Part shown: one piece after another, positions 19,838 through 63,378 of the stretch | How positions within the stretch are numbered: the first letter of the stretch is position 1 | Layout of the letters: every line of letters begins with the position of its first letter | IMG/VR virus record: IMGVR_UViG_3300047160_036265 | Strand: one strand, 5' to 3' | Length of the DNA: 64,000 bases | DNA from: a virus | The notes under the pieces: generated by a model | Databases searched by the model: none | What the model saw: the letters and a program-made list of their open reading frames with translations, nothing else | What the model was told of the DNA's origin: nothing | Position numbers and translations under genes: made by a program

Positions 19838-19909
19838 TGGCTGTAGAAGGGATCGAACCTTCGTTTCTTCCTTATGAGAGAAGCGTCTTGGCCACTAGAC
19901 GATACAGCC
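19838..19909 (-). tRNA. tRNA-Met/Ile2 (anticodon CAT)
   Basis: Manual fold: acceptor GGCTGTA/TACAGCC, D-stem GTCT/AGAC, anticodon loop CTCATAA, T-arm GAAGG-TTCGATC-CCTTC. No CCA encoded. Confidence 0.8.
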
Positions 19910-19937
19910 CTGACTTATCTAGGCAACTCCCCGGCGT

Positions 19938-20372
19938 TTATTCGTCGTCCAGGGAGCGATACTGGCTGGGCGGGTCCACCTTCTTCCTCGGCCCCTTCTT
20001 CGGTCGGGGCGGATTCCGCCTCATCTTTTCATACTGCTGCAAGTAGGCGTTGTCAAGTAGAACCTTGAAATCCGTCATCTGCGTCTTCATCATCTCGTCC
20101 ACCTGGCCCCGGACCAGCCGCACGCCCTCGCCCGCTGACTTGAGCAAATCATCGGCTATTTCCCGCAGCTTCGCTTCCACGTTGCCCTTGAGAACGGCAA
20201 AATCAGCATCCATCTGGCTTTGCAACTCGCCAGCCTTCTGCTCCATGAAGGCGTGGAAGCGATCCCGATGCTCGTCCAGGCGGTCCAGTTTACCCTGGAG
20301 CCGTCTCACCCGAAAGCCCAACCATAGGCACAGGGCAAGCAGCCCCGCAATTGCAATCCATGCCATCATCAT
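19938..20372 (-). CDS. membrane-anchored coiled-coil protein
   Basis: N-terminal transmembrane segment MMMAWIAIAGLLALCLWLGF followed by charged helical sequence. Confidence 0.5.
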   Translation of the reverse strand: MMMAWIAIAGLLALCLWLGFRVRRLQGKLDRLDEHRDRFHAFMEQKAGELQSQMDADFAVLKGNVEAKLREIADDLLKSAGEGVRLVRGQVDEMMKTQMTDFKVLLDNAYLQQYEKMRRNPPRPKKGPRKKVDPPSQYRSLDDE

Positions 20373-20390
20373 TATAAGGGGAGTAAGGGT

Positions 20391-21113
20391 TTATATTACG
20401 TCCTCGGAAAGACGCAGGCTGTCACGGTGTATTTGTTCGGCATTCTCGGCGTACCAGGCGGCGTGCCAGGAGTGTTTGCTGGCAACGTCCTCTGGACTGC
20501 GGCGAGCGTCATTCCGCCCCCAGCGCCACCTGATCCAGTCCACGCCCAGAAAGGCCATGTGCAGCAGTTTCAAATCGGGGTCGTCATCAAAAACTACCTC
20601 CCCTTCGGGCTTTGCCTTGTGACACCCAGGGCTATAGTTCATTTCGACAATTTTCTTCGGGTCGAAGATCGCCGGCTTGCTGAAGTTTTTGAAAAACTTC
20701 CCCCTTCGCACCTGCTTGATAATCGGCTGCCCGCTAATCGGGAAGGCTTCTGATACCATGTCATAGCCTACCGGGCGGGGAATGGTGACGCCCCTGCTTT
20801 TGCAGGCCATCAGATATTCCAGCAACGACGGGTGGAATATAAATTCATCTGCATCGCATACAACCACCCAATCCGCTTGCTGGCTGCGCAACTTCCACGC
20901 ATTATTCTTCAGATGCAAGTTGGCCAATTCCCGGCAGTACCCTCCGGTGGGATGAGGCTCGACAACAGCCCCGCTCCCTTCCGCTATTTCCACCGTTCGG
21001 TCATTACTTTCGTTGTCGTACAGGAATATTTTTTCCGCACAACGGTAATGATCCAGAAAGAATGGAAGGAGGCGTTCCTCGTTATGAACAATGCTGTGAA
21101 CGTGGATTATCAT
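20391..21113 (-). CDS. glycosyltransferase family 2-like protein
   Basis: YDNESNDRT and VVCDADEF (DxD). Confidence 0.55.
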   Translation of the reverse strand: MIIHVHSIVHNEERLLPFFLDHYRCAEKIFLYDNESNDRTVEIAEGSGAVVEPHPTGGYCRELANLHLKNNAWKLRSQQADWVVVCDADEFIFHPSLLEYLMACKSRGVTIPRPVGYDMVSEAFPISGQPIIKQVRRGKFFKNFSKPAIFDPKKIVEMNYSPGCHKAKPEGEVVFDDDPDLKLLHMAFLGVDWIRWRWGRNDARRSPEDVASKHSWHAAWYAENAEQIHRDSLRLSEDVI

Positions 21114-21116
21114 ACC

Positions 21117-21566
21117 TCAATAGAGTTTCAGCGGGTGGATTCCCTGTGGGCCGGTGATGCGGTCAATCGCTTCAGCCTGGGTCGGCCCGATGCCCAGGGC
21201 GGTATAAGTTGGAATGCCCTTCATACCCTCGCCAGTGGCCGTCAGGCCGGCGTCTTGGATTAAGAAGACTTCAAGGCCAGCCTGCTTGCACAGCCGCTCG
21301 ACCTCCAGAAGCTCCTCCTCGTCCTTGGCCTGAAGAACCACCTTGGTGGTCATGCCGCTCTCCATCCATACCCGTTGTTCAGGGTTGATGCGGAGGGCGT
21401 CCCAGATGGTGCCCTTAGTCTGTGAGGAACCGCTGGCAGCCCAGAGAACCCGGTGGATCAGGAACGCCGCTGCTGCGTGGCTCCCCTGGGCTATCTCCTT
21501 GCCCCGGCGCATCCCCAAGTCCCTGCGGATCACCAGCACTTGCTTCACTTCGTCGTGCGTCGGCAT
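21117..21566 (-). CDS. pth2: peptidyl-tRNA hydrolase, PTH2 (archaeal/eukaryotic) family
   Basis: KQVLVIRRDLGMRRGKEIAQGSHAAAAF and KVVLQAKDEEELLEV...LIQDAGLTATGEG...ALGIGP align with the Pth2 consensus. Confidence 0.7.
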   Translation of the reverse strand: MPTHDEVKQVLVIRRDLGMRRGKEIAQGSHAAAAFLIHRVLWAASGSSQTKGTIWDALRINPEQRVWMESGMTTKVVLQAKDEEELLEVERLCKQAGLEVFLIQDAGLTATGEGMKGIPTYTALGIGPTQAEAIDRITGPQGIHPLKLY

Positions 21567-21813
21567 AGCTCATCCCCGTGTGGCCCCGTTTGGCGTGAAG
21601 GTCCGCCTTAGTTTCTTCGCGTACCCAGGCAACAAATTCACAAAGAATCTGCCAGCGGGCCTGGGCGTCCTCATGTTTAGTGTACTGCGTCAACAGCCAG
21701 TGCGACAGCTTGACATCCAAATGTTCCTGAAATTCCTCAAGGAATTCGGCCATATGCGCGAATGATCGCATTATATCCTCGGTAACGGTCTGGGGCTTTT
21801 TCTCGTTGCTCAT
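21415..21813 (-). CDS. hypothetical protein (low confidence; extent uncertain, overlaps pth2 start by ~150 nt)
   Basis: ORF MSNEKKPQTV...; the C-terminal part is low-complexity. Confidence 0.25.
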   Translation of the reverse strand: MSNEKKPQTVTEDIMRSFAHMAEFLEEFQEHLDVKLSHWLLTQYTKHEDAQARWQILCEFVAWVREETKADLHAKRGHTGMSYADARRSEASAGDPQGLGDAPGQGDSPGEPRSSGVPDPPGSLGCQRFLTD

Positions 21814-22003
21814 GGTCGGTAAGGTCGTAAAATATAGGTGGTTCCAGAAGCTTGGCTGGCAACGCCATTTCCTCAAAGAGCTTCCGGTTGAAATATTCGA
21901 GTTCCAGCGAGAACTCGTTGCTGGGCGGTGTCGTGGTCATGGGCAGGGGCAGAAAGTATTCTGCAAAGTGGTAGTTTTCAACCCACTCGTCGTAGGATCG
22001 CAT
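21737..22003 (-). CDS. hypothetical small protein
   Basis: RBS GAGGAGG precedes the MRSYDEWVENYHF start. Trimmed from a longer ORF. Confidence 0.4.
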   Translation of the reverse strand: MRSYDEWVENYHFAEYFLPLPMTTTPPSNEFSLELEYFNRKLFEEMALPAKLLEPPIFYDLTDHEQREKAPDRYRGYNAIIRAYGRIP

Positions 22004-22127
22004 ATCTCGGCCTCCTCTCGCCCTTCTTCCAGGCACTTTCGTGCTTCGGTGACATCCCCACACTTGACGCCGTACAACCAGGCCAACTGTTCCTCCTGAT
22101 ATTGCGTCACCCACTCGACGTAGCTCC

Positions 22128-22694
22128 TCAATATTCCTCCTCGACGGTGGCCCGGAACCACGAGAACTTACTGAAGGTAACGTGCATTTCGGTGCCATCG
22201 CTGAAGAGAATATGATGAATGAACCGGCCCTGGTCATCAATATCGAACTCGTCGTAGAGCCACAGAAAGGCCCAATCCTCCCCGTCCTTGGGGAAACCGG
22301 GGCCGTGGTGCCGTTCACAATGCGGCTCGGCTTCGAGCAGATAAGTGATCGACACCACCATCGACTTCTGCGCATCCTCCTCAGACGGCTCCTTGGGGCC
22401 AAAGTCCAGACGGGTGATGATTTTGAATTCCTCTCCGGCCCGAAAGACCCCGGCAGTGCGGCACCAGGGGTCGGGGGTAGCGTCATGCAGGCAGGTCAGG
22501 TCGAGGAACTTCTGCACCCCCGCCGGCAGACTGCTTTCGTTCTTTTGCAGCCACTTTTCGTATTCCTCGCAGCCCGCTTCCCAAGCCGCCGCCACCTTTT
22601 CCTGGTCCTCGGCCTCGTCGTTCATGCGGTTTACGAGATCGGCGCTCATGTAGTGCATACGATGTCTCCTTATATTTATCTCCGCATTGGTCAC
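22128..22694 (-). CDS. hypothetical protein
   Basis: 188-aa ORF. Confidence 0.45.
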   Translation of the reverse strand: MTNAEINIRRHRMHYMSADLVNRMNDEAEDQEKVAAAWEAGCEEYEKWLQKNESSLPAGVQKFLDLTCLHDATPDPWCRTAGVFRAGEEFKIITRLDFGPKEPSEEDAQKSMVVSITYLLEAEPHCERHHGPGFPKDGEDWAFLWLYDEFDIDDQGRFIHHILFSDGTEMHVTFSKFSWFRATVEEEY

Positions 22695-22857: not shown

Positions 22858-22877
22858 ATTTCTTCCATCCTTTATTC

Positions 22878-25760: not shown

Positions 25761-26090
25761 ATGGCTTTATTCAACATTACGTTGGGCAACCCCGGAGTAG
25801 GCAATTTTCAAGGTGGCTGGAACGGCCACGGTGGCGGCATGTACCAGAACGAGTTCTACAACCAGGGAGGCGTTATGCTCCAGGGTGTCTGGATCAACGT
25901 CGCCAATGGGGGCCAGTGCGAAATAACCCAACAGGGAAACCAAGGCATGTTCATTAACGAACGTGGAAGCCAAGCTTATGGCATGATCTACCCTGGCCGA
26001 GTTGATATTCCCGCCTGGAACACGTCTGGCATGATCGCAGGGAACCGAATTGTCTGGCCGGATGGGAATTATTGGGAAAGGATTCAGTAG
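25761..26090 (+). CDS. Gly/Asn/Gln-rich small protein
   Basis: A strong RBS AAGGAGG precedes MALFNITLGNPGVGNFQGGWNGHGGG. Confidence 0.5.
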   Translation: MALFNITLGNPGVGNFQGGWNGHGGGMYQNEFYNQGGVMLQGVWINVANGGQCEITQQGNQGMFINERGSQAYGMIYPGRVDIPAWNTSGMIAGNRIVWPDGNYWERIQ

Positions 26091-34513: not shown

Positions 34514-35067
34514 AGGGGTTTAGGTAAGGGCGGCGACTGGCCCAGACGCTCCACACACATCTTCTGCATCCGCTCCACGGGGATGAGGTAGGCGAAGACA
34601 CAGGCCAGATATTGCTCCACGAAACTGCCGATCCCTGGGTTGGTGCTTTCCCGATTGCCGGCGATGTTGAGTACCTTGACCTTGTTGTTGACGATCCAGG
34701 TCACGGCCCCCTCGATGGTCGGTGGCTTTTTCACGTCCACGTCGAAATATGGCTTATCGAACCACTTCAGGGCTTTCAGAGTGCAGCGTTCGCCCGCCGT
34801 GTTAAAGTTGGCGGCAAAGCGCATCGTGCCGTCCGAATCCCGGACGTTAGCTTCCGTGCGAGGAGGGTACTTATCGCTCTCCATCTCCTTCAGGCCGAAC
34901 TGTGCAGCCAGGGCAGGGTTCGGGCCTTCCTCGGTCACACAGCCGAAGGGCACCCAACCTCCTGTGGCAATGCCCATCGTCCGTGCGGCCCGGAGGCCCG
35001 CCTGGTCAGCCCCCGTCTGGCCCCCCGACACCACCTTCTCCAGAGTCCACTCCCGGTCTTGCAGCAT
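34486..35067 (-). CDS. SLOG-superfamily (YpsA / MoCo-carrier-like) protein
   Basis: SGGQTGADQAGLRAARTMGIATGGWVPFG resembles the ISGGQTGVDRAALDAA...GGWCP signature. Confidence 0.45.
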   Translation of the reverse strand: MLQDREWTLEKVVSGGQTGADQAGLRAARTMGIATGGWVPFGCVTEEGPNPALAAQFGLKEMESDKYPPRTEANVRDSDGTMRFAANFNTAGERCTLKALKWFDKPYFDVDVKKPPTIEGAVTWIVNNKVKVLNIAGNRESTNPGIGSFVEQYLACVFAYLIPVERMQKMCVERLGQSPPLPKPLCLMRRAMQ

Positions 35068-42580: not shown

Positions 42581-42600
42581 ATGCCTCCTTGCTAAGACAG

Positions 42601-42673
42601 AGCGGGTGATGGGACTCGAACCCACGACATTCACGTTGGCAACGTGACGCTCTACCAACTGAGCTACACCCGC
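42601..42673 (-). tRNA. tRNA-Gly (anticodon GCC)
   Basis: Manual fold: GCGGGTG acceptor, GCTC-AGTTGGTA-GAGC D-arm, anticodon loop TTGCCAA, T-arm GTGGG-TTCGAGT-CCCAT. Confidence 0.85.
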
Positions 42674-44173: not shown

Positions 44174-44175
44174 AG

Positions 44176-44246
44176 AGCCGGTAGAGAGAATCGAACTCTC
44201 GTCTCCTGTTTACAAGACAGGCATAATACCACTATACGATACCGGC
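44176..44246 (-). tRNA. tRNA-Thr (anticodon TGT)
   Basis: Manual fold: GCCGGTA/TACCGGC acceptor, anticodon stem CCTGT/ACAGG with loop CTTGTAA, T-arm GAGAG-TTCGATT-CTCTC. Confidence 0.8.
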
Positions 44247-44507
44247 TTAGTTGTTATTATGTATCCGCAGCATCGGCAAACTTTGCTGCAAAGAGTCCAG
44301 CAGCCCCTCCATTTCTTTTTTCAAAATCTCCTTCTGCTCAGAATCCAGGCAGGTCTTGTACTGCCGCCCCAGGTCACACAAGCGCACACAACCTTCATAA
44401 TGGGCGCGATAGAAGTCGGCATGAACCTGCCCGGCACGCCCCTCGATCTCCTCCAGAGCCAGCTTCATCACCGCCAGCGACTCTTCCATCTTGGTTAAAT
44501 CGACCAT
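44247..44507 (-). CDS. hypothetical protein
   Basis: 86-aa ORF abutting the tRNA 5' end. Confidence 0.45.
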   Translation of the reverse strand: MVDLTKMEESLAVMKLALEEIEGRAGQVHADFYRAHYEGCVRLCDLGRQYKTCLDSEQKEILKKEMEGLLDSLQQSLPMLRIHNNN

Positions 44508-46386: not shown

Positions 46387-47856
46387 CTACTCCTTCAGTC
46401 GAAGTTCCCTGCGAAGCTGCTCTGGGATGCCGGCAGGGGCTTGCATTACCGCCGTCCGCCCGTGGGCATTCATCGGAAAGGCGATCACTTCCTTCAGGGA
46501 CGTTTCATTGCAAAGTAACATGGCCAGGCGGTCCAGACCAAGGGCAATTCCGCCGTGGGGAGGCGTACCCAGATCGAAAGCGTCCAGCATGTGGCCGACA
46601 CTCTCCTCCGTCTCGCCCTGATTGTACCCCATATTGCGGAAGGTAGCTTCGAGGATGTCCCGCCGGTGGGCGCGAATGCTGCCGCTCCCCACTTCGTAAC
46701 CGTTGCAAACCAGATCGTACTGATACGCCTGAATCTGGTCGAGGTTCTTACCCTCAAGGTGCCACTCCAGGTGTTCCGCAATCGGCATCGAGAAGGGGTT
46801 GTGCATGAACGTATATTCGCCCTTGGTATCGAGTTTTTCCTCGGCGGTCGTCGCCTTTTTGTACATGGGAAAACGAACGACCCAGCAAAAGGCCAGGACG
46901 TTGTTCTGTATCTGGTCGGGAGTGCGGATGTCGGGCTTGTCCGTTTTGTATTTCTCCATCGCCTCCTGGTAGGTGAGGATGGGGAAGGTGGACATGGCGT
47001 TGTCGAGAAGGTCGTAGCGGCGCTCGTCCTTGTACTCGTCGTTGCACTTGCGGCTTAGTTTGTAGCAGCAATAACGAATCACATCACTGACATGGTGGAA
47101 TATACGCCATTCCTCCGGGAAGGCGATTTCCATGTCAAGTTGTGTGAATTCAAAACCACGGTCGAGACGCAGGCTCTCGTCCCGGATGCAGCGGGCGATC
47201 TGGTAATAACCCTCGAAACCCGCCGTCATGAGCAACTGTTTGTACTGCTGGGGACTCTGCGGCAGGGCGTAGAACTTGCCCGGCTGAAGACGCGACGGCA
47301 CCACAAAATCCCGTGCCCCCTCCTTGGTGGACTTGGTAAGCATCGGGGTTTCAATATAGGTGAAGTGCGTCGTGGCGCACTGGCCCAGGATCGTGTGAAT
47401 ATACTGGATGATTTTCGAGCGCACCAGCATGTTACGGTGCAAGCGTTTGCGGCGCAGGTCCAAGTAGCGATACTGAAGGCGCTTCTCCTCATTGATCTCA
47501 TAGCCTGGGCCGTCAATGGGGATGGGAAGCTCCTTGCACTTGTTGAGAACCGTGCATGTATCCACGACCACTTCGACGCTACCCGTCAACATCTCCGGGT
47601 TGACCATGTGTTCGGGGCGCTTGACGATCTTCCCCGTAATTTCCACCACGTCTTCGGCATTCAACCCCTTCATCAAACCACGACCTACGCACTGAACAAT
47701 GCCGGTGAAGTCGCGCAGGTCAATAAACACCAGTTTGCCGTGGCTGCGCACCGTGTCCACCCAGCCCTGGAGACGCCACAGGGTCGCATCAGGCCCGCCG
47801 GTGCTGGCAAGGCGCTGGGTGGATTCGGCGGTGGTTAGTTGTCCTGGCCTTCGCAT
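46387..47856 (-). CDS. aspS: aspartyl-tRNA synthetase, bacterial type but lacking the GAD insertion domain (~490 aa)
   Basis: IETPMLTKSTKEGARDFVVPSRLQPGKFYALPQSPQQYKQLLM, QIARCIRDE, EFTQLD, GSGSIRAHR and PPHGGIALGLDRLAMLL blocks. Start trimmed to MRRPGQLTT, which aligns with E. coli MRTEYCGQL. Confidence 0.8.
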   Translation of the reverse strand: MRRPGQLTTAESTQRLASTGGPDATLWRLQGWVDTVRSHGKLVFIDLRDFTGIVQCVGRGLMKGLNAEDVVEITGKIVKRPEHMVNPEMLTGSVEVVVDTCTVLNKCKELPIPIDGPGYEINEEKRLQYRYLDLRRKRLHRNMLVRSKIIQYIHTILGQCATTHFTYIETPMLTKSTKEGARDFVVPSRLQPGKFYALPQSPQQYKQLLMTAGFEGYYQIARCIRDESLRLDRGFEFTQLDMEIAFPEEWRIFHHVSDVIRYCCYKLSRKCNDEYKDERRYDLLDNAMSTFPILTYQEAMEKYKTDKPDIRTPDQIQNNVLAFCWVVRFPMYKKATTAEEKLDTKGEYTFMHNPFSMPIAEHLEWHLEGKNLDQIQAYQYDLVCNGYEVGSGSIRAHRRDILEATFRNMGYNQGETEESVGHMLDAFDLGTPPHGGIALGLDRLAMLLCNETSLKEVIAFPMNAHGRTAVMQAPAGIPEQLRRELRLKE

Positions 47857-48860
47857 AATGGCTCCAAATAAGCGGCGGCAAAGTCTACCTTCTTCTCGAA
47901 GGGCAGTTGCCGCATATATTCCCCATTCAACCAAAGGAGTTTCGCCGGGTCAAAACTGGCCGGGGAATCGTTCACGCCGTCCAATGAAAAACATTCTACC
48001 AGTTTCGCCAGTGGAATGATTTCCGAAGTTCCGTCCAGCGCCCAACCCAGGCGAGCCAAGTAGTTGACCATCGCCTCCGGCAGATAACCCATCGCCTGAT
48101 AATAGCCCAGGACCGCCGGGTTCAGATCAGTGCGTTCGGTAAAACCAATCGTTGTCAACTTCTCACACACGTCCGGGGTCATGAACTGATCCAGGTCGCG
48201 CTTGCTGAGCTTCTTCTTCGATCCCGGCGCACAAATAAAAGACAGGTGGCCAAACTTCGGTTCGGCCCAGCCCAAACTACGAAACAGGGCCAATTGAATG
48301 GGCGTGTTGCTTAGATGTTCCTCGCCCCGGAGGATGTGGGTCACGCCCAGGTCGTGATCGTCCACCACGGAGGCGAAGTTGTAAAGGAAGGTGCCGTCCG
48401 ACCGCCGGATCACCGGGTCTTTGATGAGCTTGTCATCCCAGGTGAGCTTCTTGCGGATCAGGTCGAAACAGCCGATGCCCACGCCATCATCCCAATGGGG
48501 GATGCTGAAGCGGACAGCGCCCTCCTCCTCGTAGGCCCACCCGGAGGCAAGCAGGCTGGCGCAGACCTCCCGGTAACGGTCCAGGCGCTCGGACTGATAG
48601 AACGGGCCGGCGTCATGCGACAGGCCCAGCCAGGCGAGGCCATCAAGAATAGGCTGCACGGCCTCTTCGATGTTGCGCTCGGTGTCGGTGTCGTCAATAC
48701 GCAGGATGAACCGGCCCTGGTAACGGCGGGCGTAGAGCCAGTTGAAAAGTGCGGTTCGGACGCCGCCGATGTGCAAGTACCCCGTGGGACTAGGTGCGAA
48801 CCGAGTGACTGGTTTGAGCATGAAGTTGAGCCTGTATTTGCTTGTGTACCTCCGGCCCAA
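47835..48860 (-). CDS. glutamyl-tRNA synthetase catalytic core lacking the C-terminal anticodon-binding domain (GluQ-RS-like architecture); probable start at 48821
   Basis: VTRFAPSPTGYLHIGGVRTALFNW is the HIGH motif and KLSKR is the KMSKS motif. Colinear with E. coli GluRS residues ~1-345, then stops. Confidence 0.75.
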   Translation of the reverse strand: MGRRYTSKYRLNFMLKPVTRFAPSPTGYLHIGGVRTALFNWLYARRYQGRFILRIDDTDTERNIEEAVQPILDGLAWLGLSHDAGPFYQSERLDRYREVCASLLASGWAYEEEGAVRFSIPHWDDGVGIGCFDLIRKKLTWDDKLIKDPVIRRSDGTFLYNFASVVDDHDLGVTHILRGEEHLSNTPIQLALFRSLGWAEPKFGHLSFICAPGSKKKLSKRDLDQFMTPDVCEKLTTIGFTERTDLNPAVLGYYQAMGYLPEAMVNYLARLGWALDGTSEIIPLAKLVECFSLDGVNDSPASFDPAKLLWLNGEYMRQLPFEKKVDFAAAYLEPLCEGQDN

Positions 48861-49429: not shown

Positions 49430-49684
49430 TCACCCTGTCATGCCGTCGTGGATGGACACCACGACGGACTTACTCCTGACGGCGAACTTGAAATAGTGAA
49501 ATTCCGATTGGGTGGGGTCAATACCCGACTCATCCTTTAACGCCTTGAGCGCAGCCCGCTCATATTTGCGGACCAAGGCCAGGGCCTTGCGCAATTCTGC
49601 CGCCTCGGTGGCCGTGGCCGGGAAAGTAACCTCCACGATCCCGGAGGCGGCGCTGTAGTGTTCCTGCACGTCGATGGCTTTCAT
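49430..49684 (-). CDS. hypothetical protein
   Basis: Trimmed to MKAIDVQEHY. Confidence 0.4.
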   Translation of the reverse strand: MKAIDVQEHYSAASGIVEVTFPATATEAAELRKALALVRKYERAALKALKDESGIDPTQSEFHYFKFAVRSKSVVVSIHDGMTG

Positions 49685-50007
49685 TCGGCTGGCTCGATTT
49701 CGCAACTCATGGACCCCTGACACCGGGCAATCATCTTGTCTGGCCCAAAGGCGTGAACCTGCTCCTGTTTCAACTCGGCGTGTTCCTTCGTCGTGGTCAG
49801 CAGGATGGTGCGGCCCGTCTCGTGAACCTCCTTGGCGTGCTGCATCCCCTTCTCCGGCGGGAAGCCGAAAATCTTCTGCAACATCCCGATGACGTACTCG
49901 AACGAGTGGTCGTCGTCGTTCAGGAGGATGACGTTATAAGGCGGCTGTTGCTTGACTTTCTTTTCCTCTTCCGTCCGTGGTTTTGGCCTCTCAATTGTTT
50001 CCGGCAT
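49681..50007 (-). CDS. clpS: ATP-dependent Clp protease adaptor ClpS
   Basis: YNVILLNDDDHSFEYVIGMLQKIF...AKEVHETGRTILLTTTKEHAELK matches the ClpS core. Confidence 0.7.
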   Translation of the reverse strand: MPETIERPKPRTEEEKKVKQQPPYNVILLNDDDHSFEYVIGMLQKIFGFPPEKGMQHAKEVHETGRTILLTTTKEHAELKQEQVHAFGPDKMIARCQGSMSCEIEPAE

Positions 50008-50099: not shown

Positions 50100-50276
50100 G
50101 TCTACCACCTAAAGCCTTCCCCCACAAGGTCTTTCGGCTCCTGCCCCAGAAGCTCGAAAACCCGGTCCAGGTCTTCCAGCCGCACAGGCGGCTCGCCCAT
50201 CTGGGCGAAGAGCAAGTCGATTGCCCAGGTTTCCGGCACGGGCAGGGCCATCGTGACCCAAATGACTGTCTCATAC
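50100..50276 (-). CDS. hypothetical small protein (low confidence)
   Basis: MYETVIWVTMALPVPETW... It overlaps the upstream stop by 8 nt and is below the ORF-track cutoff. Confidence 0.25.
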
Positions 50277-50495
50277 ATCCGTGTGTTCTTTCACCCACTG
50301 GTCATAAGTCTTCATGCCCGTGTGTTTGGGACGGGAGTGTTTGTATTTGAGATAATAGGGCAAGCACGTCGGGCCAGTCAACGGCTGGACCTTGATGAGC
50401 TTGTCCGCTATGAGTTGGGGGTAAATGCGGCGAACGAGGGGGATGGTGATGCGCTTGAATTGCCCATTGCCCAAATAATCATCGTAGTGTCGCAT
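50271..50495 (-). CDS. hypothetical protein
   Basis: 74-aa ORF. Confidence 0.4.
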   Translation of the reverse strand: MRHYDDYLGNGQFKRITIPLVRRIYPQLIADKLIKVQPLTGPTCLPYYLKYKHSRPKHTGMKTYDQWVKEHTDV

Positions 50496-50764: not shown

Positions 50765-50841
50765 GGCGGTGCCCTCTCAAAAATGGTGGTTAGCACATGG
50801 TAAACCTCCGGGGGCGATGGTTCCGGTTTCAAAATAAAAGG

Positions 50842-50912
50842 AGCGGGCTACGAGATTTGAACTCGTGCTTTCAACTTGGAAGGATGACGTGCTGCCACTA
50901 CACCAAGCCCGC
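50842..50912 (-). tRNA. tRNA-Gly (anticodon TCC)
   Basis: Manual fold: GCGGGCT/AGCCCGC acceptor, anticodon loop CTTCCAA, T-arm ACGAG-TTCAAAT-CTCGT. There is one U-U mismatch in the anticodon stem and a 3-bp D-stem. Confidence 0.7.
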
Positions 50913-51447: not shown

Positions 51448-52008
51448 TCAAGAGTTCACAAGCTGAATTTTCTTTTCCATGATGGTGTCGATTTGCTTTA
51501 TGAACGACTCAACCAGAGCCAGAAGTTCCTTATCAAGCCGCCGTTCGGCATCTTCGCTCATAAGGGCCTTGGGGTCAAGGCGCTTTTTGGCCTTTTGTTG
51601 ACCCTTCTTCGCATCGTGTCTTATATTACGAATCGTCACCCGTGCGTCTTCGGCCAGGCCACGGATTTGGGCCACCAGCTTTTCCTTCTGGCCGCTGTCC
51701 ATGCGGGGCTGCGAGACATACACCACGTCCTCCTTGCCGGGCTGATAGACACTGTATCCCTGGCCTTCTAACGCCCGCCGCACGTCCGGCAACGCCTCCG
51801 GGTCATGGGGGCGAATCTGCACGTTGTTATGCAGTTGCGGCAGCACCATCGCCACCCGCCCCAACGGCTCTACGGTGCCCTTGAAACGCACGCGCACCGC
51901 CTCAATGACGGAGATCGTATTGCCGCCGTGCAAGCCGGCAAGGTTGTCCTTGAAGTGCAGCAAGCTCTTGTCCATCTTCTGTCGGGAATTTTGAATTACC
52001 TCTTTCAT
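51448..52008 (-). CDS. frr: ribosome recycling factor
   Basis: MKEVIQNSRQKMDKSLLHFKDNLAGLHGGNTISVIEAVRVRFKGTVEPLGRVAMV...VTIRNIRHDAKK...SEDAERRLDKELLALVESFIKQIDTIMEKK is colinear with E. coli RRF. Confidence 0.8.
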   Translation of the reverse strand: MKEVIQNSRQKMDKSLLHFKDNLAGLHGGNTISVIEAVRVRFKGTVEPLGRVAMVLPQLHNNVQIRPHDPEALPDVRRALEGQGYSVYQPGKEDVVYVSQPRMDSGQKEKLVAQIRGLAEDARVTIRNIRHDAKKGQQKAKKRLDPKALMSEDAERRLDKELLALVESFIKQIDTIMEKKIQLVNS

Positions 52009-53197: not shown

Positions 53198-53209
53198 GTG
53201 TACCTCCAG

Positions 53210-53280
53210 TGGAGCCTAGCGGATTTGAACCGCTAATTCTACAATGCCATTGTAGCGTGATCCCATTTCACTAAGGCCCC
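53210..53280 (-). tRNA. tRNA-Ala (anticodon GGC)
   Basis: Manual fold: GGGGCCT/AGGCTCC acceptor with G3:U70, anticodon stem CTACA/TGTAG with loop ATGGCAT, T-arm AGCGG-TTCAAAT-CCGCT. Confidence 0.75.
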
Positions 53281-53289
53281 TGCAACTAT

Positions 53290-54144
53290 CTAGTGACCAT
53301 ACGGGCATTTGCCCGAAGTGTCAACCCGTTTTTCAACTTCCTGGCAGTCTGGTTCCAGGCCCCCTTTGAGAATGCGGTGCCGCTCCCGGAAGTACGTCGT
53401 GCTGTCCTTCGTTCGCTGGCCATCCCTGGTCAACGCCTGCTTGCCGCCATGACCGAACTTCTTGTCATTATATTGCAACCAATAAGAGAAAACCCGCTCG
53501 GCCTCCGGGGTGTTGCGATTCAGATACTCTTCCTCCAGGGTCCACTCCGCTTCCGCCGCCTCCCGCCGCATCGGAATAATATGAGCCAGCGGGGGCCAGC
53601 CGTTCGTCCTCAACGACACCTTCTCGCCAGGCTTATTGAACACGACGTTGAACCAAATGTCATATTGCATCCAGTCGGTTTCAAGAACCCCCTCCATGAC
53701 GTAAAGAAGCTGCTGCGGGTTGGGGGCATTGATCGGGCTGCGAATGTGCAGGCACCAGCCGGGCGGCGTCTCGAATATCAGCCCGGTCCAGATTTGGACA
53801 ACATTTGGTTCGACCGCCCCCCAGGTGAATTTCGTGCGCCCGGTAGGTTGGCACCACTTTTCTGTGTCGATATTGTCTTCCGGCCTCAACAAGCTGTGCA
53901 GAAGGCGGTAGTCCCAATCGTCATATGGCTGGAGGAGTTCATGCTCGAAACGGTCGCCGTGCCAAGTAATGTCAATGTCCACCGGCGGGAACAGCCACCA
54001 GCCCAAGCGGTTCACCGTGGCGTAAGGACCGCACCATTTGACGGCGGCAGGATTGGCCGCACCGTTCAGGGTCTTTTCAGCACGAATAACCCTGGACGCC
54101 TGCGGGTGCAATCGCCAGACTTTCAACTTAAAACCTTCGGTCAT
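53290..54144 (-). CDS. hypothetical protein
   Basis: 284-aa ORF. Confidence 0.5.
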   Translation of the reverse strand: MTEGFKLKVWRLHPQASRVIRAEKTLNGAANPAAVKWCGPYATVNRLGWWLFPPVDIDITWHGDRFEHELLQPYDDWDYRLLHSLLRPEDNIDTEKWCQPTGRTKFTWGAVEPNVVQIWTGLIFETPPGWCLHIRSPINAPNPQQLLYVMEGVLETDWMQYDIWFNVVFNKPGEKVSLRTNGWPPLAHIIPMRREAAEAEWTLEEEYLNRNTPEAERVFSYWLQYNDKKFGHGGKQALTRDGQRTKDSTTYFRERHRILKGGLEPDCQEVEKRVDTSGKCPYGH

Positions 54145-54904
54145 TTCTCTTCAACAAGGACAGCGCCTTGCGCCAGTGCTGGGAATAAGTATGTGCGATA
54201 ATGGAGTCTTTCATCTTCAACAAATCAATGTCGTTGCCAGGTATGAGTACGTCCTTGGAATCGAGGTAGCTCGTGGTAAAGGGGTCTTGGCCAAGCAACA
54301 ACGCAATGGTGAACTCCTCCCGTGGCCCGCACTCTGGATGGAACTTATACAACCACTTGGTCAGGGCAGGATTGATTGTTCCTTCCCGGATGCCCCGGCT
54401 TAGCTCCGGCAAGGCGGCGCACCACTTCTGAAGCCAACCGTTGCGCCACAGGACCACGCCGCTATTAAAGGGCGTAAACGGCAATTCGTTCGTGAAACCG
54501 TAGGAATATACCCACTGGTTGGCAGAAGCGCTCATATCGTTTTTATATTTGTCGAACAGCTTGGCAACGTCGTCAAATATAAAGGTGTCCGAGTCAATAC
54601 ACAGGGCCTCCTGCTCCGGCACGTCGCCCCACTGGCATTTCTGAATGTAAAAATACCCCTCCTCGCCGGAGAAGACGCGCAAGGGCCGGCGGACTACCTC
54701 GACATTGAACCCCCGGCAAAGCTCGAAAAGATTGTCGGAGGAATAGACGGTCGGAAACGCGCCGGCGGCGGTTTCCTTCGCTCCGTCCTCGACGTAGTAG
54801 AGGCGAATGGGGATGGTTTTATTGTGCTGCCGCAGCATGAATATGCTGTTCGCCGTCATCCGCATGTAGAAGGGATGTTCGTTGACCAAATATAAACAAA
54901 CCAT
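54128..54904 (-). CDS. putative nucleotide-diphospho-sugar (DxD) glycosyltransferase-like protein
   Basis: CIDSDTFIFDD (DxD motif). Trimmed to MVCLYLVNEHPFYM, which starts 3 nt after the tRNA-Ala 3' end. Confidence 0.4.
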   Translation of the reverse strand: MVCLYLVNEHPFYMRMTANSIFMLRQHNKTIPIRLYYVEDGAKETAAGAFPTVYSSDNLFELCRGFNVEVVRRPLRVFSGEEGYFYIQKCQWGDVPEQEALCIDSDTFIFDDVAKLFDKYKNDMSASANQWVYSYGFTNELPFTPFNSGVVLWRNGWLQKWCAALPELSRGIREGTINPALTKWLYKFHPECGPREEFTIALLLGQDPFTTSYLDSKDVLIPGNDIDLLKMKDSIIAHTYSQHWRKALSLLKRNDRRF

Positions 54905-54906
54905 AA

Positions 54907-54977
54907 TGGAGCCGCCGAGAGTCGAACCCGGATTTCTACCGTGCAAAGGTAGCGTGTTCCCATTACACCACGGCCCC
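54907..54977 (-). tRNA. tRNA-Ala (anticodon TGC), second copy
   Basis: Manual fold: GGGGCCG/CGGCTCC acceptor with G3:U70, anticodon stem CTACC/GGTAG with loop TTTGCAC. Confidence 0.75.
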
Positions 54978-55143
54978 GCTCTGACTGGTAATACCCGTCA
55001 GCAGACGAGTCTTTTGCGTACAAGGGCGAATTTCACCGGCGGGCGTCGTCCAGGTCAAGCGCCTATATTCATAATAGAGTCGATAGCGGTAGAAGTAAGT
55101 GCTGTACTGGACGTGGTATTCCTCAACCTCGAACGACCCCTCC

Positions 55144-55434
55144 TCATGTATCCCGACTAGGATGCCGTGGGACAGCACCCAGGATACCGCCAGGAAGTCG
55201 TCCAGATTGAGTGGCATCGCGTTGACGAACGTACTCAGGCGACATGCACATCAGATCGTGATAGGTCCAGCGGGTGCCATCCCGGAACATACCACAGTCG
55301 CAGGCGGGGCAAACATCCGTGCCGCCCATTGAGGCTTCGCCAACCGGCAGGCCGCAAAGGCGACAGGGGGCCTGCTCATCATAGGGTACTTGAACCACCG
55401 TGCCGTCAAGGCTTGTGTAAACAACAATCTTCAT
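55144..55434 (-). CDS. hypothetical Zn-ribbon protein
   Basis: CRLCG...CPACDC motifs. Trimmed to MKIVVYTSL, which starts 4 nt after tRNA-Ala(CGC). Confidence 0.4.
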   Translation of the reverse strand: MKIVVYTSLDGTVVQVPYDEQAPCRLCGLPVGEASMGGTDVCPACDCGMFRDGTRWTYHDLMCMSPEYVRQRDATQSGRLPGGILGAVPRHPSRDT

Positions 55435-56143
55435 GAGTGGAGCGTAGGGGAGTTGCACCCCTATTTCCTGGTTGCGACCCAGGCGGATTCCTGTTATCCG
55501 AACGCCCCTCGTAATCGACCTCGCCCAAGTATCTACGCAGCAAGGCCAAGCGTTTTTCAGGCGGAACGATACCCGGCAGGTGAATTACAAAATCCCCAGG
55601 CTGATACTGTCCCGCCTCCCACAGCTTCACCGGCCAGTCGTAGTGTTCGTACCCATAGGCATTGAACAACTTCTGGTTGACCATCCTGGTTCTCTCCAGG
55701 TACTCACCCCTGAAGATAAGAGTGGCCACCATCGCCGTCTGTTCGGGGTTCTTCCAGCCCACATAACGGGTCTGCTGGTAAGCCAGGTCCAGGTAGTCCA
55801 GCATCAACGGCGTGTTGCGCATGAACAGGTTGCCGACGTTGAGGCCGTTCACATCGTAGCTTATCACAAAGTCATGGTGGTCGTCAAGGAATGTCTCCAG
55901 GCAAATCGCCTGGTTCATGATGATCGCGTCGGTGTCGGTGTAGAAAATCCAGTCAAAGGCAGGAAGATGCTGGCGCAACGCCTTGATCTTGTACCAGTGA
56001 GGCTCCCGGTCACGGTCATGCCCGCTGTCGCATACGATGAATTCGTAGCCGTGCCGGTCGCAGTAGCGCTGCTTGTTAGAACGGGTTAGCTCACCCAGAT
56101 GTCGGCCAGCCTCATCCCATACCGACAGGACGGCGATCCTCAT
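55406..56143 (-). CDS. DxD glycosyltransferase-like protein (GT34/GMA12-like) whose 3' end reads through the tRNA-Ala(CGC) gene
   Basis: WIFYTDTDAIIMN. The first stop in frame lies downstream of the tRNA. Confidence 0.5.
   Translation of the reverse strand: MRIAVLSVWDEAGRHLGELTRSNKQRYCDRHGYEFIVCDSGHDRDREPHWYKIKALRQHLPAFDWIFYTDTDAIIMNQAICLETFLDDHHDFVISYDVNGLNVGNLFMRNTPLMLDYLDLAYQQTRYVGWKNPEQTAMVATLIFRGEYLERTRMVNQKLFNAYGYEHYDWPVKLWEAGQYQPGDFVIHLPGIVPPEKRLALLRRYLGEVDYEGRSDNRNPPGSQPGNRGATPLRSTHEDCCLHKP
55438..55508 (-). tRNA. tRNA-Ala (anticodon CGC)
   Basis: Manual fold: GGGGCGT/ACGCTCC acceptor with G3:U70, anticodon stem CCTGG/CCAGG with loop GTCGCAA, T-arm AGGGG-TGCAACT-CCCCT. Confidence 0.75.
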
Positions 56144-59626: not shown

Positions 59627-59635
59627 TGGACCCTC

Positions 59636-60305: not shown

Positions 60306-60354
60306 AATGGGCGTGGTAGGGAACGATCCTACGGTCCTCCGTTAAGCCGCAGGG

Positions 60355-60762: not shown

Positions 60763-61738
60763 TCCTCACGTCGTAGACCTTTTGCTCGGCTTGAGCGAAG
60801 TCGGGGTCATTTGAGAAGTCCAGGTGGGCAACCGGAAACCCCTCGTAGGTGCGATTCGTCCACTCGGCCACCTGGCCGTGCTGCTGGAAGAAGGTATGCC
60901 ACCCATTCCAGTCATCGTACTGGCACTGCTGGAAGGACAAACAATAACGCCCCTCTGCCCCCTGGATGTTGACGTAGGGAGGCTTGTGCCCGCCCATGAG
61001 CAGCATCAGCTTCTTGGAAGCCAGGATGGCGTAATATTGCGCCAAAGTGGTCCGCAGCGTTTTCTGGTCCTTCACGAAGTTGTAGGGGTCCGTGGCCTCG
61101 TTAAAAGGGGCCAGGCGGGGCAGCAACTCGTCAATCTGTTGCTTGTACTTGGGGTCGATGGCGAAAGGAAGACGTTCCGGCGGCGGGATGGGCTTCATCT
61201 CAGCCACCCGGCGGATGGCCTCCTTGAGCGGCACCTTGCGGCGGTCCCAGACCTCGTGAAAGGCCGGCTCGTCATTCCAGTTGCCCAGGACATTCCACTC
61301 GTCGTGAAATTCCCCCCAGCCCTCTGGCCACTCCCGGTCGGTGGGCAACGACTTCTGCACCGTATGACAGGGCTGACAGTCAGAATGGAACACGACGAAG
61401 ATTTCATCGTCGGTGGCGGTAAGGAACCGCTCCCGGTCGGCAAACAACTGCTTCACGGCTTCATTGGGCGGGCCGTACTGCTCCTCGAAATCTTCCTCAT
61501 CCTGGGCGTTGCGGAACGCCTCGCGCAGCCCTTCGATTTCCTCGCGTACCTGGGCCTCGGTCCCGCCCCGTGGCACCAGGATGCCCTGGAGGGGCCGCTC
61601 GGCCAGGCCAACTTCACAGGATTCATTATCGCGTTCGATGTAGTCGTAGGTGTCGTCCCGATAAGTGAAAAACGCACCCATCTGCTCCTGCTGGATGGCG
61701 TCGAAGACTGGTTGATATTCGGGGTCATTAGGTGTCAT
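60728..61738 (-). CDS. hypothetical protein (~336 aa)
   Basis: Trimmed to MTPNDPEYQPVF. The upstream part of the ORF is junk that overlaps the next gene. Confidence 0.5.
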   Translation of the reverse strand: MTPNDPEYQPVFDAIQQEQMGAFFTYRDDTYDYIERDNESCEVGLAERPLQGILVPRGGTEAQVREEIEGLREAFRNAQDEEDFEEQYGPPNEAVKQLFADRERFLTATDDEIFVVFHSDCQPCHTVQKSLPTDREWPEGWGEFHDEWNVLGNWNDEPAFHEVWDRRKVPLKEAIRRVAEMKPIPPPERLPFAIDPKYKQQIDELLPRLAPFNEATDPYNFVKDQKTLRTTLAQYYAILASKKLMLLMGGHKPPYVNIQGAEGRYCLSFQQCQYDDWNGWHTFFQQHGQVAEWTNRTYEGFPVAHLDFSNDPDFAQAEQKVYDVRIDYYDSHASGY

Positions 61739-61985
61739 CCGGGGCCTCCTTGGAGCCGGTATCGAGGTTGTAATAGTTCGCCGCCTGGATGCGGCGCAGA
61801 CCGAATTTGCGCAGGGCATCGGCAATGTCGAAAAGATTGTGGCCGACTTCATCCGCCGTCGCATCAACAACAGCGGGGAAATCAACGATGGGGCTTTCGC
61901 TCCCCAACATGATTTCCCCGTGAGCGGTCGCCAGGGTGTAGAAGTGGTTGGGCTTTATGCGCCTTTCTGGATTTTCCGCCGACAT
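61728..61985 (-). CDS. hypothetical protein
   Basis: Start taken as MSAENPERR, 4 nt downstream of the tRNA-Arg 3' end. Confidence 0.4.
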   Translation of the reverse strand: MSAENPERRIKPNHFYTLATAHGEIMLGSESPIVDFPAVVDATADEVGHNLFDIADALRKFGLRRIQAANYYNLDTGSKEAPDDT

Positions 61986-61988
61986 AAG

Positions 61989-62060
61989 CACCCCCGCCAG
62001 GAATCGAACCCGGACCTATTCTTTAGGAAAGAATCGTGCTGTCCGTTACACCACGGGGGC
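61989..62060 (-). tRNA. tRNA-Arg (anticodon CCT)
   Basis: Manual fold: GCCCCCG/CGGGGGT acceptor with G1-U72, anticodon stem ATTCT/AGAAT with loop TTCCTAA, T-arm CCGGG-TTCGATT-CCTGG. Confidence 0.75.
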
Positions 62061-62069
62061 CTAGACACA

Positions 62070-62510
62070 TTATATACCTCGCTGCGTGAAGATCATAGCC
62101 CGATTGATGTCAGGCGAAGCACCCGGATCGTCACGCCCGCAGGGAATGTGAAACTTCATCTTGAAGCCCTTCTCGTCCCGGAGCCGCAGGGCCAGATGGT
62201 GCATCTCCGGGCTGGTGATCGGGTACTCGTCGCCATCAACCAGGATGGCGGTGTAACACCATAATCCCTTCTCCAAGCACACCTTGCACTCGGTCGGATA
62301 CATCAGGCCGATCCAGATGTCCGGCTGGCCGTCCTCGCAGTCGCAGCACATATGCTGATCGCCGCAGACGGAGCAGCGGGCGATGTCACAACCCGGATCG
62401 TGCTTCTCGCCTACCTTCACCTTACAGTCGGGGCAGAGGGGTTGTAAAGTGCTTTCAAACTCCTTGAGCCAAGGATGGGCCTGCAACACCTGCTCGAACG
62501 GGTTCATCAC
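62070..62510 (-). CDS. hypothetical Cys-rich protein
   Basis: CPDC...CSVCGDQHMCCDCEDG...CKVC motifs. Confidence 0.45.
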   Translation of the reverse strand: MMNPFEQVLQAHPWLKEFESTLQPLCPDCKVKVGEKHDPGCDIARCSVCGDQHMCCDCEDGQPDIWIGLMYPTECKVCLEKGLWCYTAILVDGDEYPITSPEMHHLALRLRDEKGFKMKFHIPCGRDDPGASPDINRAMIFTQRGI

Positions 62511-62731
62511 TCGCCTCCGAAGAGCATGGGGAAAAGCAAGTAGCGCATCTGGCTGTCAGCAGCCGCAACCTCCGCATCCCGCCCCTGTTCTGCGATTTTC
62601 TCGTCAAGAAACTTGACGGCCTTGTTCTCTGGACCGCCCAGGGCGGCGCACAAATCACGATACTCCCCCAAGGTTGAGGGGCAAGGGGAACCGCTGTCAT
62701 CACTGGTACGCATGTTCGGCTTCCAATTCAA
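62507..62731 (-). CDS. hypothetical protein
   Basis: ATGA-coupled. Confidence 0.4.
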   Translation of the reverse strand: MNWKPNMRTSDDSGSPCPSTLGEYRDLCAALGGPENKAVKFLDEKIAEQGRDAEVAAADSQMRYLLFPMLFGGE

Positions 62732-62779
62732 AGTTTCCTGTGATAAATATAATTCAAGGGCAGCGCAAAGGAGCTATTT

Positions 62780-63325
62780 ATGCCTTTTCAGGATGAAGCC
62801 TCCAAATTTGTGGCATTAACCAAGAAGTACATTTCGGGCGACGACCACAAGGAGCTTATCATCAAACTCGATGAGGAGTTAGGCCAGAAGACTTCAGACC
62901 CAGCTTTGAAACATTTCTTCAACATGGCCCGCCTCATCGTTGACCCGCCGTTCATCCCGGCACCGTGGTACTGGTGGGCGGCGCTCTACGCCCTCGTCTC
63001 CTCGCACCTGGCCCTTGTCCTCGGCGTCATCCTTTCCTTCTTCCTGCTGCCCTTTTACGCCCCTTGGTATGTTGCGTTGCCCCTTATGGCTTTTATCTGG
63101 TTCTTCTCCACCACCAGCGTCGAGTGCAAGCTGACGCAACTTGAAAATTACATCCGCAAGCGGCTGGGCCTCAAGCGTATCGGAGGTTTTGTAGGACACT
63201 ACCTTGTTCGCCCCAGCCGGCGGCTGGTGCGACGGGCGGCTGGTATGAAAGCGCCGCCCTTGCGATTATGGAGCAAGCCTAGTCGGCCCTCCAAGCCATC
63301 TGAAAGCACCCCCGCCAGGAATTGA
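62780..63325 (+). CDS. hypothetical membrane protein
   Basis: RBS AAGGAG. Multiple transmembrane segments. The 3' end overlaps tRNA-Arg(TCT) on the opposite strand by 19 nt. Confidence 0.45.
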   Translation: MPFQDEASKFVALTKKYISGDDHKELIIKLDEELGQKTSDPALKHFFNMARLIVDPPFIPAPWYWWAALYALVSSHLALVLGVILSFFLLPFYAPWYVALPLMAFIWFFSTTSVECKLTQLENYIRKRLGLKRIGGFVGHYLVRPSRRLVRRAAGMKAPPLRLWSKPSRPSKPSESTPARN

Positions 63326-63378
63326 ACCCGGACCTAGAAGTTAGAAGCATCTCGTGCTGTCCGTTACACCACGGGGGC
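63307..63378 (-). tRNA. tRNA-Arg (anticodon TCT)
   Basis: A paralog of the 61989 tRNA with the same acceptor, D-arm and T-arm. The anticodon stem is AGATG/CTTCT (one mismatch) with loop CTTCTAA. Confidence 0.7.

Follow-up and report, generated by a model that had tools for sequence, protein, structure and literature searches.

Twelve tRNA genes in a region of translation genes of a probable huge phage, including a conserved alanine set and an interrupted tRNA

The window analysed here, a 64,000-nucleotide (64-kb) stretch of the IMG/VR virus record IMGVR_UViG_3300047160_036265, carries 12 tRNA genes, all on the minus strand and together spanning positions 19838-63378. As a whole, we consider it likely that the window belongs to the translation module of a bacterium-infecting huge phage (or phage-like element) of ~670 kb, a module in which tRNAs for rare codons are combined with a full alanine set. 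The four tRNA-Ala genes are far better conserved between related lineages than their neighbours, and one further gene, probably a tRNA-Ile(UAU) homolog, is interrupted in its anticodon loop.

All 12 genes were called by ARAGORN on the whole window (Table 1), and the same 12 were recovered with the Rfam model RF00005 at 51.4-73.9 bits (E <= 4e-8; gathering score 29), a permissive Rfam scan of the whole window yielding no RNA gene beyond them. An earlier note, made by hand from the letters of the window, had counted eleven tRNAs on this strand; its strand and outer coordinates hold, and its count is one short, Val(TAC) having been overlooked. Ten of its anticodons (Met/CAT, Ala TGC twice, Ala GGC, Ala CGC, Gly GCC, Gly TCC, Thr TGT, Arg CCT and Arg TCT) agree with ARAGORN and Rfam, and its ‘Lys-like(TTT)’ is probably wrong. 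It was also right that no gene encodes CCA: ten carry C74 alone and Gly(TCC) carries CC. A 7-base anticodon loop with U33 is present in 11 of the 12 genes, the exception being 26087-26180, where 28 nucleotides (nt) lie between the two strands of the anticodon stem. A canonical T loop (T54, U55, C56, A58) is likewise found in 11 of 12, the exception being Ala(CGC). Bacterial identity elements are present, namely G3:U70 and A73 in the Ala tRNAs, A32-U38 in Ala(GGC), U73 in both Gly tRNAs and A20 in the Arg tRNAs. The tRNA-CAT has the G1:C72 pair of an elongator and an anticodon stem free of a run of three G:C pairs. Agrobacterium phage Atu_ph07 has a stretch without annotation that matches Gly(GCC) at 92% identity.

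The G3:U70 pair that the earlier note ascribed to each of the four Ala tRNAs is indeed there, accompanied in all four by A73; with both bacterial identity elements present, all four would be predicted substrates of AlaRS. All four genes begin with GGGGC, yet their pairwise identity is only 58-81%, arguing that they are old and distinct rather than recent copies. Together they cover every bacterial alanine anticodon, UGC, GGC and CGC. Ala(CGC) is atypical, with the T loop UGCAACU, which places G55 where U or pseudouridine is almost universal, and with G32; both features are unchanged in three lineages. No close match to the Ala tRNAs was found among 50,697 phage records, in IMG/VR or among 185,579 species genomes, and a 25-nt pattern of acceptor stem and D arm, taken from the paralogs at 27232 and 55437, matched nothing in the 185,579 species genomes.

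Conservation was assessed in two related lineages. Lineage B comprises loci L021-L023, with DNA 78% identical to window positions 52.9-56.2 kb and an inter-tRNA protein 66% identical; lineage C comprises loci L010, L014, L025 and L026 and includes a 122.5-kb contig, with an AspRS 76% identical to that of the window. The Ala genes recur at the same positions in these lineages with 94-100% identity, against 66-78% for flanking DNA and 50-92% for the other tRNAs, of which Thr, Gly, Val and Ile reach just 50-75%. Ala(CGC) matches at 72/72 positions in both lineages; copy a of Ala(TGC), at 27232, matches at 72/72 in lineage C, where its aligned flank matches at only 98 of 186 positions (L010); copy b, at 54907, matches at 70/71 in lineage B and is absent from lineage C, where the surrounding cassette differs. 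Ala(GGC) matches at 70/72 in lineage B, both changes forming a single compensatory pair (U27:A43 to G:C), and at 68/72 in lineage C. For the other tRNAs, the figures in lineage C are 67/73 for Arg(CCT), with compensatory changes, 54/72 for Thr(TGT), 56/75 for Gly(GCC) and 48/73 for Val(TAC), the last at the same site and with compensatory stem changes; the Ile counterpart of the interrupted gene has a different backbone, and ARAGORN found no counterpart of Gly(TCC) in the 21.5-kb syntenic lineage C locus. From lineage B, neither copy a of Ala(TGC) nor the Arg(CCT), Thr, Gly, Val and Ile genes were recovered. In all six alignments, identity falls from ~100% to 41-77% exactly at the tRNA borders, which argues for purifying selection rather than recent conversion tracts. 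To judge from these comparisons, the Ala genes behave like essential genes, near-constant across lineages whose proteins are 66-77% identical, while other tRNAs drift or are replaced or lost. The two Arg tRNAs are paralogs that differ almost only in the anticodon arm; both open with a G1-U72 wobble pair, which is kept in lineage C and is also found in the interrupted tRNA.

The segment from Ala(CGC) to Ala(GGC) (window 53209-55508; L025 4661-5692) is a replaceable cassette. In the window and in lineage B it holds an 84-residue open reading frame (ORF), Ala(TGC), a GT8-like gene and a DUF6065 gene; in lineage C it holds a DUF1508 gene and a gene for a 217-residue protein. Between L021 and L025, similarity is limited to the two bracketing tRNAs (Ala(CGC) 100%, Ala(GGC) 97%), with no similarity in the flanks. 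With a wholly different cassette between them in lineage C, Ala(CGC) and Ala(GGC) also delimit an exchangeable unit.

Codon usage was counted over 18,198 codons from our own gene calls, in which the GC content at third codon positions is 73%. Alanine accounts for 7.5% of codons (GCC 712, GCG 324, GCT 218, GCA 113) and glycine for 7.0% (GGC 652, GGG 298, GGT 203, GGA 118). Eight of the 12 tRNAs, with anticodons UGC (twice), UCC, UGU, UAC, UAU, UCU and CCU, pair with the codon that is least used in their family, and the relative synonymous codon usage of these codons is below 0.5 throughout (GCA 0.33, GGA 0.37, ACA 0.27, GTA 0.31, ATA 0.32, AGA 0.15, AGG 0.47); the other four, Ala(GGC), Ala(CGC), Gly(GCC) and tRNA-CAT, read abundant codons. 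The earlier note had proposed that the element may be expanding its arginine decoding pool, among others. AGA (28 of 18,198) and AGG (88) are, however, its rarest Arg codons, and the two Arg tRNAs fit the usual supply of decoders that are scarce in a GC-rich host. Its further proposal, that alanine stands out, is upheld by conservation across diverged lineages; codon usage gives it no support yet, the excess of four Ala genes among 12 over a codon share of 7.5% having p ~0.01, uncorrected for the post-hoc choice of alanine and drawn from about one tenth of the genome.

The interrupted gene, of 94 nt, has a normal acceptor stem, D arm and T arm, and its anticodon stem (ACGGU/ACCGU) encloses the 28 nt mentioned above. 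ARAGORN assigns it no identity, and the Rfam alignment needs a 24-nt insertion. We propose a 21-nt insert at ~26127-26147, which holds the hairpin UGGGU-CAGACA-ACCCA. Deleting 21 nt leaves a 7-nt loop in either of two ways, CUUUUAA (Lys UUU) or CUUAUAA (Ile UAU), the insert being placed at 33/34 or 34/35, that is, 5' of the anticodon or within it. The Lys(UUU) reading, which the sequence by itself allows and which the earlier note had adopted, is outweighed by two comparisons. The gene lies directly behind a 41-residue ORF whose TGA stop abuts base 1 of the tRNA; the C-terminus of this ORF is conserved in L010 and L014, it is also called as a gene in L019, and it marks the orthologous tRNA site. 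In lineage C (L010/L014, JGI contig Ga0126369_10000006), an uninterrupted 73-nt tRNA-Ile(TAT) with the loop CUUAUAA stands right after the ORF, which there ends in ...WHWWRGDGWID*; this tRNA scores 40.4 bits in Rfam, and the pyruvyl transferase of the same relative is 77% identical to that of the window. Furthermore, when the body of the interrupted tRNA is compared with the 50,697 phage records, T4-like and rV5-like phages provide the best matches, in genes labelled ‘tRNA-Met-CAT’. One T4-like phage was examined; its matching gene has an acceptor stem and a T arm that agree throughout with those of the interrupted tRNA, and it follows tRNA-Thr in the T4-type cluster, in the slot of the AUA-reading tRNA-Ile. 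Given Ile(TAT) at the orthologous site of the relative, and an acceptor stem and T arm like those of the T4-type tRNA-Ile, the interrupted gene is probably a homolog of tRNA-Ile(UAU) and not of tRNA-Lys.

The insert is not an assembly artefact, as the 94-nt sequence is identical in four other independent ENA assemblies from different samples; an origin from a mobile repeat was also rejected, its 16-nt hairpin occurring only once in the window. For the gene to serve in decoding, the insert would have to be removed by a cut-and-ligate step that joins ...GGUCU to UAUAAACC..., and whether it is genuinely removed strikes us as doubtful. Somewhat better placed, though still short of an even chance, is the alternative that the gene is a functionless tRNA-Ile pseudogene, recently disabled by the 21-nt insertion. 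An exhaustive search of the 94 nt found no fold-compatible bulge-helix-bulge motif (two 3-nt bulges flanking a 4-bp helix) and only the mirror-image arrangement; a group I intron, whose core takes ~200 nt or more, does not fit into 21 nt, and no Rfam intron matches at E <= 1. All this favours a dead gene, as do the lack of the insert in the Ile(TAT) of the relative, the fast turnover of tRNAs at neighbouring sites and the failure to find either a splicing endonuclease or an RNA ligase in the window. Yet all four arms are intact and the gene scores 62 bits in Rfam, more than the 40 bits of its uninterrupted relative; the insert is fixed, being identical across samples; its removal restores a perfect 7-nt loop; and RlaP, an RNA-ligase-associated enzyme, is encoded at 13530-14429. 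Conserved inserts are also found in tRNAs of Lak megaphages (PMC6784885). In L013, a 669-kb relative at greater distance, there is a gene with an RNA ligase domain (Pfam RNA_ligase).

The tRNA genes are wedged between ORF ends or overlap them, as the earlier note had described. The stop codons of ORFs 26181-26306 and 44247-44507 leave a gap of 0 nt to base 1 of the interrupted tRNA and of Thr(TGT), respectively; the G of a TAG stop upstream of the Ala(TGC) at 27303 is itself base 1 of the tRNA (1 nt shared); the Ala(TGC) at 54977 is overlapped over 15 nt by the upstream ORF; and Ala(CGC) is contained in the last ~100 nt of the glycosyltransferase ORF 55406-56143. This GT34-like ORF reads across the entire tRNA and stops 31 nt past it, as it does in lineage B; lineage C has Ala(CGC) but not the ORF. 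It seems that the ORF was inserted beside Ala(CGC) and borrowed the tRNA sequence as its C-terminus. Sigma-70-like promoter matches precede two tRNAs: TTGACA-17-TATGGT (53324-53296) ends 15 nt upstream of Ala(GGC), and TTGATA-18-TACAAT (50950-50921) ends 8 nt upstream of Gly(TCC). By our reading of the alignment, a TTGACA box with 17-nt spacing is also found upstream of Ala(GGC) in lineage B. At least two tRNAs therefore appear to have sigma-70-like promoters of their own, and the remaining ones are probably co-transcribed with neighbouring genes. Directly downstream of tRNA-CAT lies an HNH endonuclease gene (19069-19740, minus strand). The order PTH2, tRNA-CAT, HNH is kept in the distant relative loci L008 (4181-5215) and L009 (4786-5868) and in L015; proteins in L008 and L009 are only ~45% identical and tRNA-CAT only ~55%, yet the order is retained. 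The arrangement is reminiscent of the homing endonucleases in T4 tRNA clusters.

The 12 genes are co-oriented with the surrounding small ORFs and placed singly between them. In the picture that we favour, those without promoters of their own would be released from long transcripts by the RNase P and RNase Z of the host and finished by a CCA-adding enzyme. The set would then supply decoders for the rarest codons of a GC-rich style (the eight anticodons listed above, UAU being available if the insert is removed), which is the logic of the T4 tRNA cluster, and the full alanine set together with the major Gly decoder would make translation of the abundant GCN and GGN codons independent of the host tRNA pool during infection. 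Several observations weigh against this picture. No phage structural gene (capsid, terminase or tail) was identified in the window, and GTDB genome searches identified no host, the codon figures being the element's own only. As the window covers 64 kb of ~670 kb, every amino acid may turn out to have its tRNA in the complete set, and the alanine bias would then be an artefact of the window. The T loop of Ala(CGC), with its G55, is non-canonical. AlaRS reads the acceptor stem only, and the conservation of the whole Ala tRNA sequences exceeds what such recognition would require. Finally, the 64-kb window yielded no enzyme that could excise the 21 nt, and the interrupted gene may be dead.

The exceptional conservation of the Ala genes relative to the other tRNAs would also be expected if phage tRNAs, above all those for alanine, replaced host tRNAs cleaved or depleted by host anticodon nucleases or by phage shut-off, their sequences being fixed by the need both to translate and to escape the nuclease; this anti-defence role overlaps with a rare-codon and alanine supply and does not exclude it. 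In line with such a role, the Ala tRNAs resemble none in the phage, IMG/VR and species-genome collections searched, genes for RNA repair or processing lie in the window (RlaP and an NYN-domain RNase, 5679-6383), and tRNA repair is a known theme of jumbo phages (PMC7824862). However, Ala(UGC) copy b and Ala(GGC) have anticodon loops of the ordinary bacterial kind, with nothing obviously evasive about them. It also counts against this role that, to our knowledge, no defence nuclease targets tRNA-Ala as a class, and we regard it as unlikely. The position of the genes suggests yet another role, quite improbable in our view, in which they serve as punctuation for transcript processing or as recombination anchors for cassette swaps between co-infecting phages, decoding being secondary. 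It is true that tRNAs touch ORF ends or run into them, that a cassette differing wholly between lineages is bracketed by Ala(CGC) and Ala(GGC), and that these two tRNAs are all that L021 and L025 share. For processing, however, a tRNA shape would suffice, with neither a fixed sequence nor a complete range of anticodons needed; recombination tracts should end scattered in the flanks, whereas identity drops at the tRNA borders in six of six comparisons; and the Thr, Gly and Val tRNAs are similarly placed, yet not conserved.

A use outside the ribosome, in which Ala and Gly tRNAs feed a transferase of the Fem or aminoacyl-lipid synthase type, or a SerRS-like enzyme, tied to the glycosyltransferases, is highly improbable. 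Three Ala tRNAs are interleaved with glycosyltransferase-like genes, the GT34 gene at 55406-56143 and the family of 54128-54904, some homologs of whose product carry Pfam Glyco_transf_8, and the T loop of Ala(CGC) is atypical. Against this, Pfam scans of ~66 ORFs found no Fem-type or aminoacyl-lipid-synthase domain, and the SerRS-like ORF is a canonical SerRS core without similarity to amino acid:carrier-protein ligases. Ribosomal use is indicated by the retained A32-U38 pair of Ala(GGC), a pair linked to accurate ribosomal decoding, and by the ordinary bacterial UUUGCAC loop of Ala(UGC) copy b. The anticodons jointly cover all GCN codons, which is relevant for decoding only, and lineage C lacks the glycosyltransferase cassette and still has the flanking Ala tRNAs.

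A 669,797-bp JGI contig encodes proteins identical to those of the window, and further contigs, 600-673 kb long, encode homologs. Most called genes, ~99 of 117, lie on the minus strand; the genes are small and tightly packed, with a GC content of 53-63% and standard use of stop codons. The label ‘phage’ rests on this gene style, on the relatives and on a gp23-like N-terminal match: a 74-residue ORF (50271-50495, minus strand; also in L025 and L028) matches only the first 45 positions of the T4 Gp23 model (E 2e-9) and may be a capsid-targeting or propeptide-like sequence. A DNA search of INPHARED found no similar genome, and searches of IMG/VR by tRNA sequence or ORF pattern did not find the lineage, the only hit being an AspRS relative at 55-58% identity; AspRS relatives in IMG/VR (L002-L005, L028) and distant pyruvyl-transferase relatives (L013) share neither gene order nor Ala tRNAs with the window. 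An archaeal or eukaryotic virus, as suggested by the PTH2, vault, OGFr_N and GT34 domains and by the short tRNA insert, was considered and rejected, because AspRS and the GluRS core pass bacterial equivalog cut-offs, RF1/RF2-type and ribosome recycling factor genes are present, the Gly tRNAs carry U73 and the promoters are sigma-70-like.

Several translation genes accompany the tRNAs (Table 1). AspRS is a short form without the insertion domain, and its matches outside its own clade are 55-59% identical; those with a named source are mostly metagenome-assembled genomes of Patescibacteria, several on 380-673-kb contigs that are possibly other huge phages. GluRS appears to be split into two genes, a catalytic domain adjoining AspRS and an anticodon-binding domain ~19 kb away, both conserved in the relative. 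The earlier note had linked the Ala and Gly tRNAs, as a hypothesis, to a SerRS-like enzyme that would activate alanine or glycine. The ORF in question, 33731-34513, scores 264 bits against bacterial serS over model positions 147-400 and only marginally against the methanogen-type model (E ~1e-3), and 29 of its 29 PDB matches are seryl-tRNA synthetases, none an amino acid:carrier-protein ligase; it is a canonical bacterial-type SerRS core, and nothing but the shared region connects it to these tRNAs. The core, which lacks the N-terminal tRNA-binding arm, overlaps a cpYpsA (SLOG) gene (34486-35067, minus strand), and the pair is kept in lineage C (L025 20097-21243). An 893-residue protein (30129-32810, minus strand) matches the Pfam major-vault-protein shoulder domain (E 7e-26) and vault repeat (E 7e-11); it is kept in the related lineage as an 887-residue protein in the same gene order and is unusual for a phage-like element.

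Table 1. tRNA genes and selected neighbouring genes of the 64-kb window; every tRNA was found by both ARAGORN and Rfam.
Feature	Position	Strand	Rfam (bits)	Remarks
tRNA-CAT	19838..19909	-	65.2	elongator-type, Met or Ile2 (lysidine)
interrupted tRNA, 94 nt, probably Ile(UAU)	26087..26180	-	62.1	unnamed by ARAGORN; Rfam with 24-nt insertion
tRNA-Val(TAC)	26980..27052	-	70.9	
tRNA-Ala(TGC) copy a	27232..27303	-		G3:U70, A73
tRNA-Gly(GCC)	42600..42673	-	73.9	U73, bacterial Gly identity
tRNA-Thr(TGT)	44175..44246	-		
tRNA-Gly(TCC)	50840..50912	-		U73
tRNA-Ala(GGC)	53209..53280	-		G3:U70, A73; A32-U38 loop pair typical of bacterial tRNA-Ala(GGC)
tRNA-Ala(TGC) copy b	54907..54977	-		G3:U70, A73; anticodon loop UUUGCAC
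tRNA-Ala(CGC)	55437..55508	-	51.4	lowest score of the 12; G3:U70, A73
tRNA-Arg(CCT)	61988..62060	-		A20, G73, G1-U72 wobble pair
tRNA-Arg(TCT)	63306..63378	-	55.1	one U-U mismatch in anticodon stem
small ORF, 41 aa	26181..26306	-		ends ...LWHWWRGDGWID*; TGA stop abuts base 1 of interrupted tRNA
NYN-domain RNase	5679-6383	-		
RlaP nucleotidyltransferase	13530-14429	-		RNA-ligase-associated
truncated RF1 (release factor)	17866-18525	-		without N-terminal domain
PTH2	21117-21566	-		archaeal/eukaryotic-type peptidyl-tRNA hydrolase
GluRS anticodon-binding domain	28970-29689	-		fused to DUF2934; separate gene
SerRS catalytic core	33731-34513	-		NCBIfam serS 264 bits
AspRS, bacterial-type	46387-47934	-		above NCBIfam cut-off
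GluRS catalytic domain	47835-48860	-		passes bacterial gltX NCBIfam cut-off
ClpS adaptor	49681-50007	-		
RRF (ribosome recycling factor)	51448-52008	-		

This kind of feature, a huge-phage tRNA repertoire within a translation module, is known; two details stay unexplained, the 21-nt insert and the constancy of the alanine genes. In published huge phages, as many as 67 tRNAs occur alongside aminoacyl-tRNA synthetases, release factors and ribosome recycling factors (PMC7162821). The element resembles them in its size, >200 kb as judged from the identical proteins on the 669,797-bp contig, in having such genes beside its tRNAs, and in that many of the tRNAs are unlike any known host tRNA; unlike in those repertoires (PMC7162821), its tRNAs are scattered singly over 44 kb and its Ala set is far more conserved than the rest. 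With the T4-type cluster (Gln, Leu, Gly-UCC, Pro, Ser, Thr-UGU, Ile, Arg-UCU) it shares Gly(UCC), Thr(UGU), Arg(UCU) and an AUA-reading Ile tRNA with the same acceptor stem and T arm as the interrupted tRNA. As in T4, U34 is found in most anticodons, which read A-ending codons for which the host would be poorly equipped. T4 differs in that its Ile anticodon is CAU, modified by host TilS, where UAU would be used here, in having no alanine tRNAs and in keeping its genes in one tight cluster. G3:U70, A73 and the GGGGC start, together with the A32-U38 pair of Ala(GGC) and the UUUGCAC loop of Ala(UGC) copy b, place the Ala tRNAs with the bacterial tRNA-Ala family, from which they differ by shorter D loops (7 nt), variable loops of 4 nt and the G55 and G32 of Ala(CGC).

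For the insert, the short insertions in the anticodon loop made by bulge-helix-bulge introns of archaea and eukaryotes come to mind, and eukaryotic tRNA-Ile(UAU) genes carry an intron. Here, however, the canonical motif is lacking, an intron at 37/38 would leave G37 after a UUU anticodon, and other evidence points to a bacterial host, without a splicing endonuclease. We found a single precedent, the ‘enigmatic introns’ in tRNAs of Lak megaphages (PMC6784885). Compared by description, both are inserts in the anticodon region of tRNAs of a very large phage, invariant in the population and with an insert-free version in a relative. Lak phages, however, form an unrelated group with 26% GC that infects gut Prevotella, against 56% GC for the element here, and the present insert is a 21-nt one with a small hairpin, at 33/34 or 34/35 and not at the canonical 37/38.

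The window adds a probable example of a huge-phage tRNA repertoire from a lineage barely represented in the viral collections searched. Ala tRNAs that stay constant while their neighbours drift or are replaced offer a handle on which phage tRNAs are needed and why, and a short, fixed anticodon-loop insert without the hallmarks of known tRNA introns hints, together with the Lak cases, at tRNA cutting and rejoining in infected bacteria. We hold it somewhat unlikely that at least one of two stronger statements is true, that the 21-nt insert is removed in a bacterial cell, or that host tRNA-Ala is eliminated in infection and the phage tRNAs decode all GCN codons. The former would mean that infected bacteria have a protein-based pathway for cutting and ligating tRNA, possibly using phage RNA-repair enzymes (RlaP and a ligase encoded elsewhere); the latter would mean that phage or host removes host tRNA-Ala, which would account for the unchanged four-gene alanine set.

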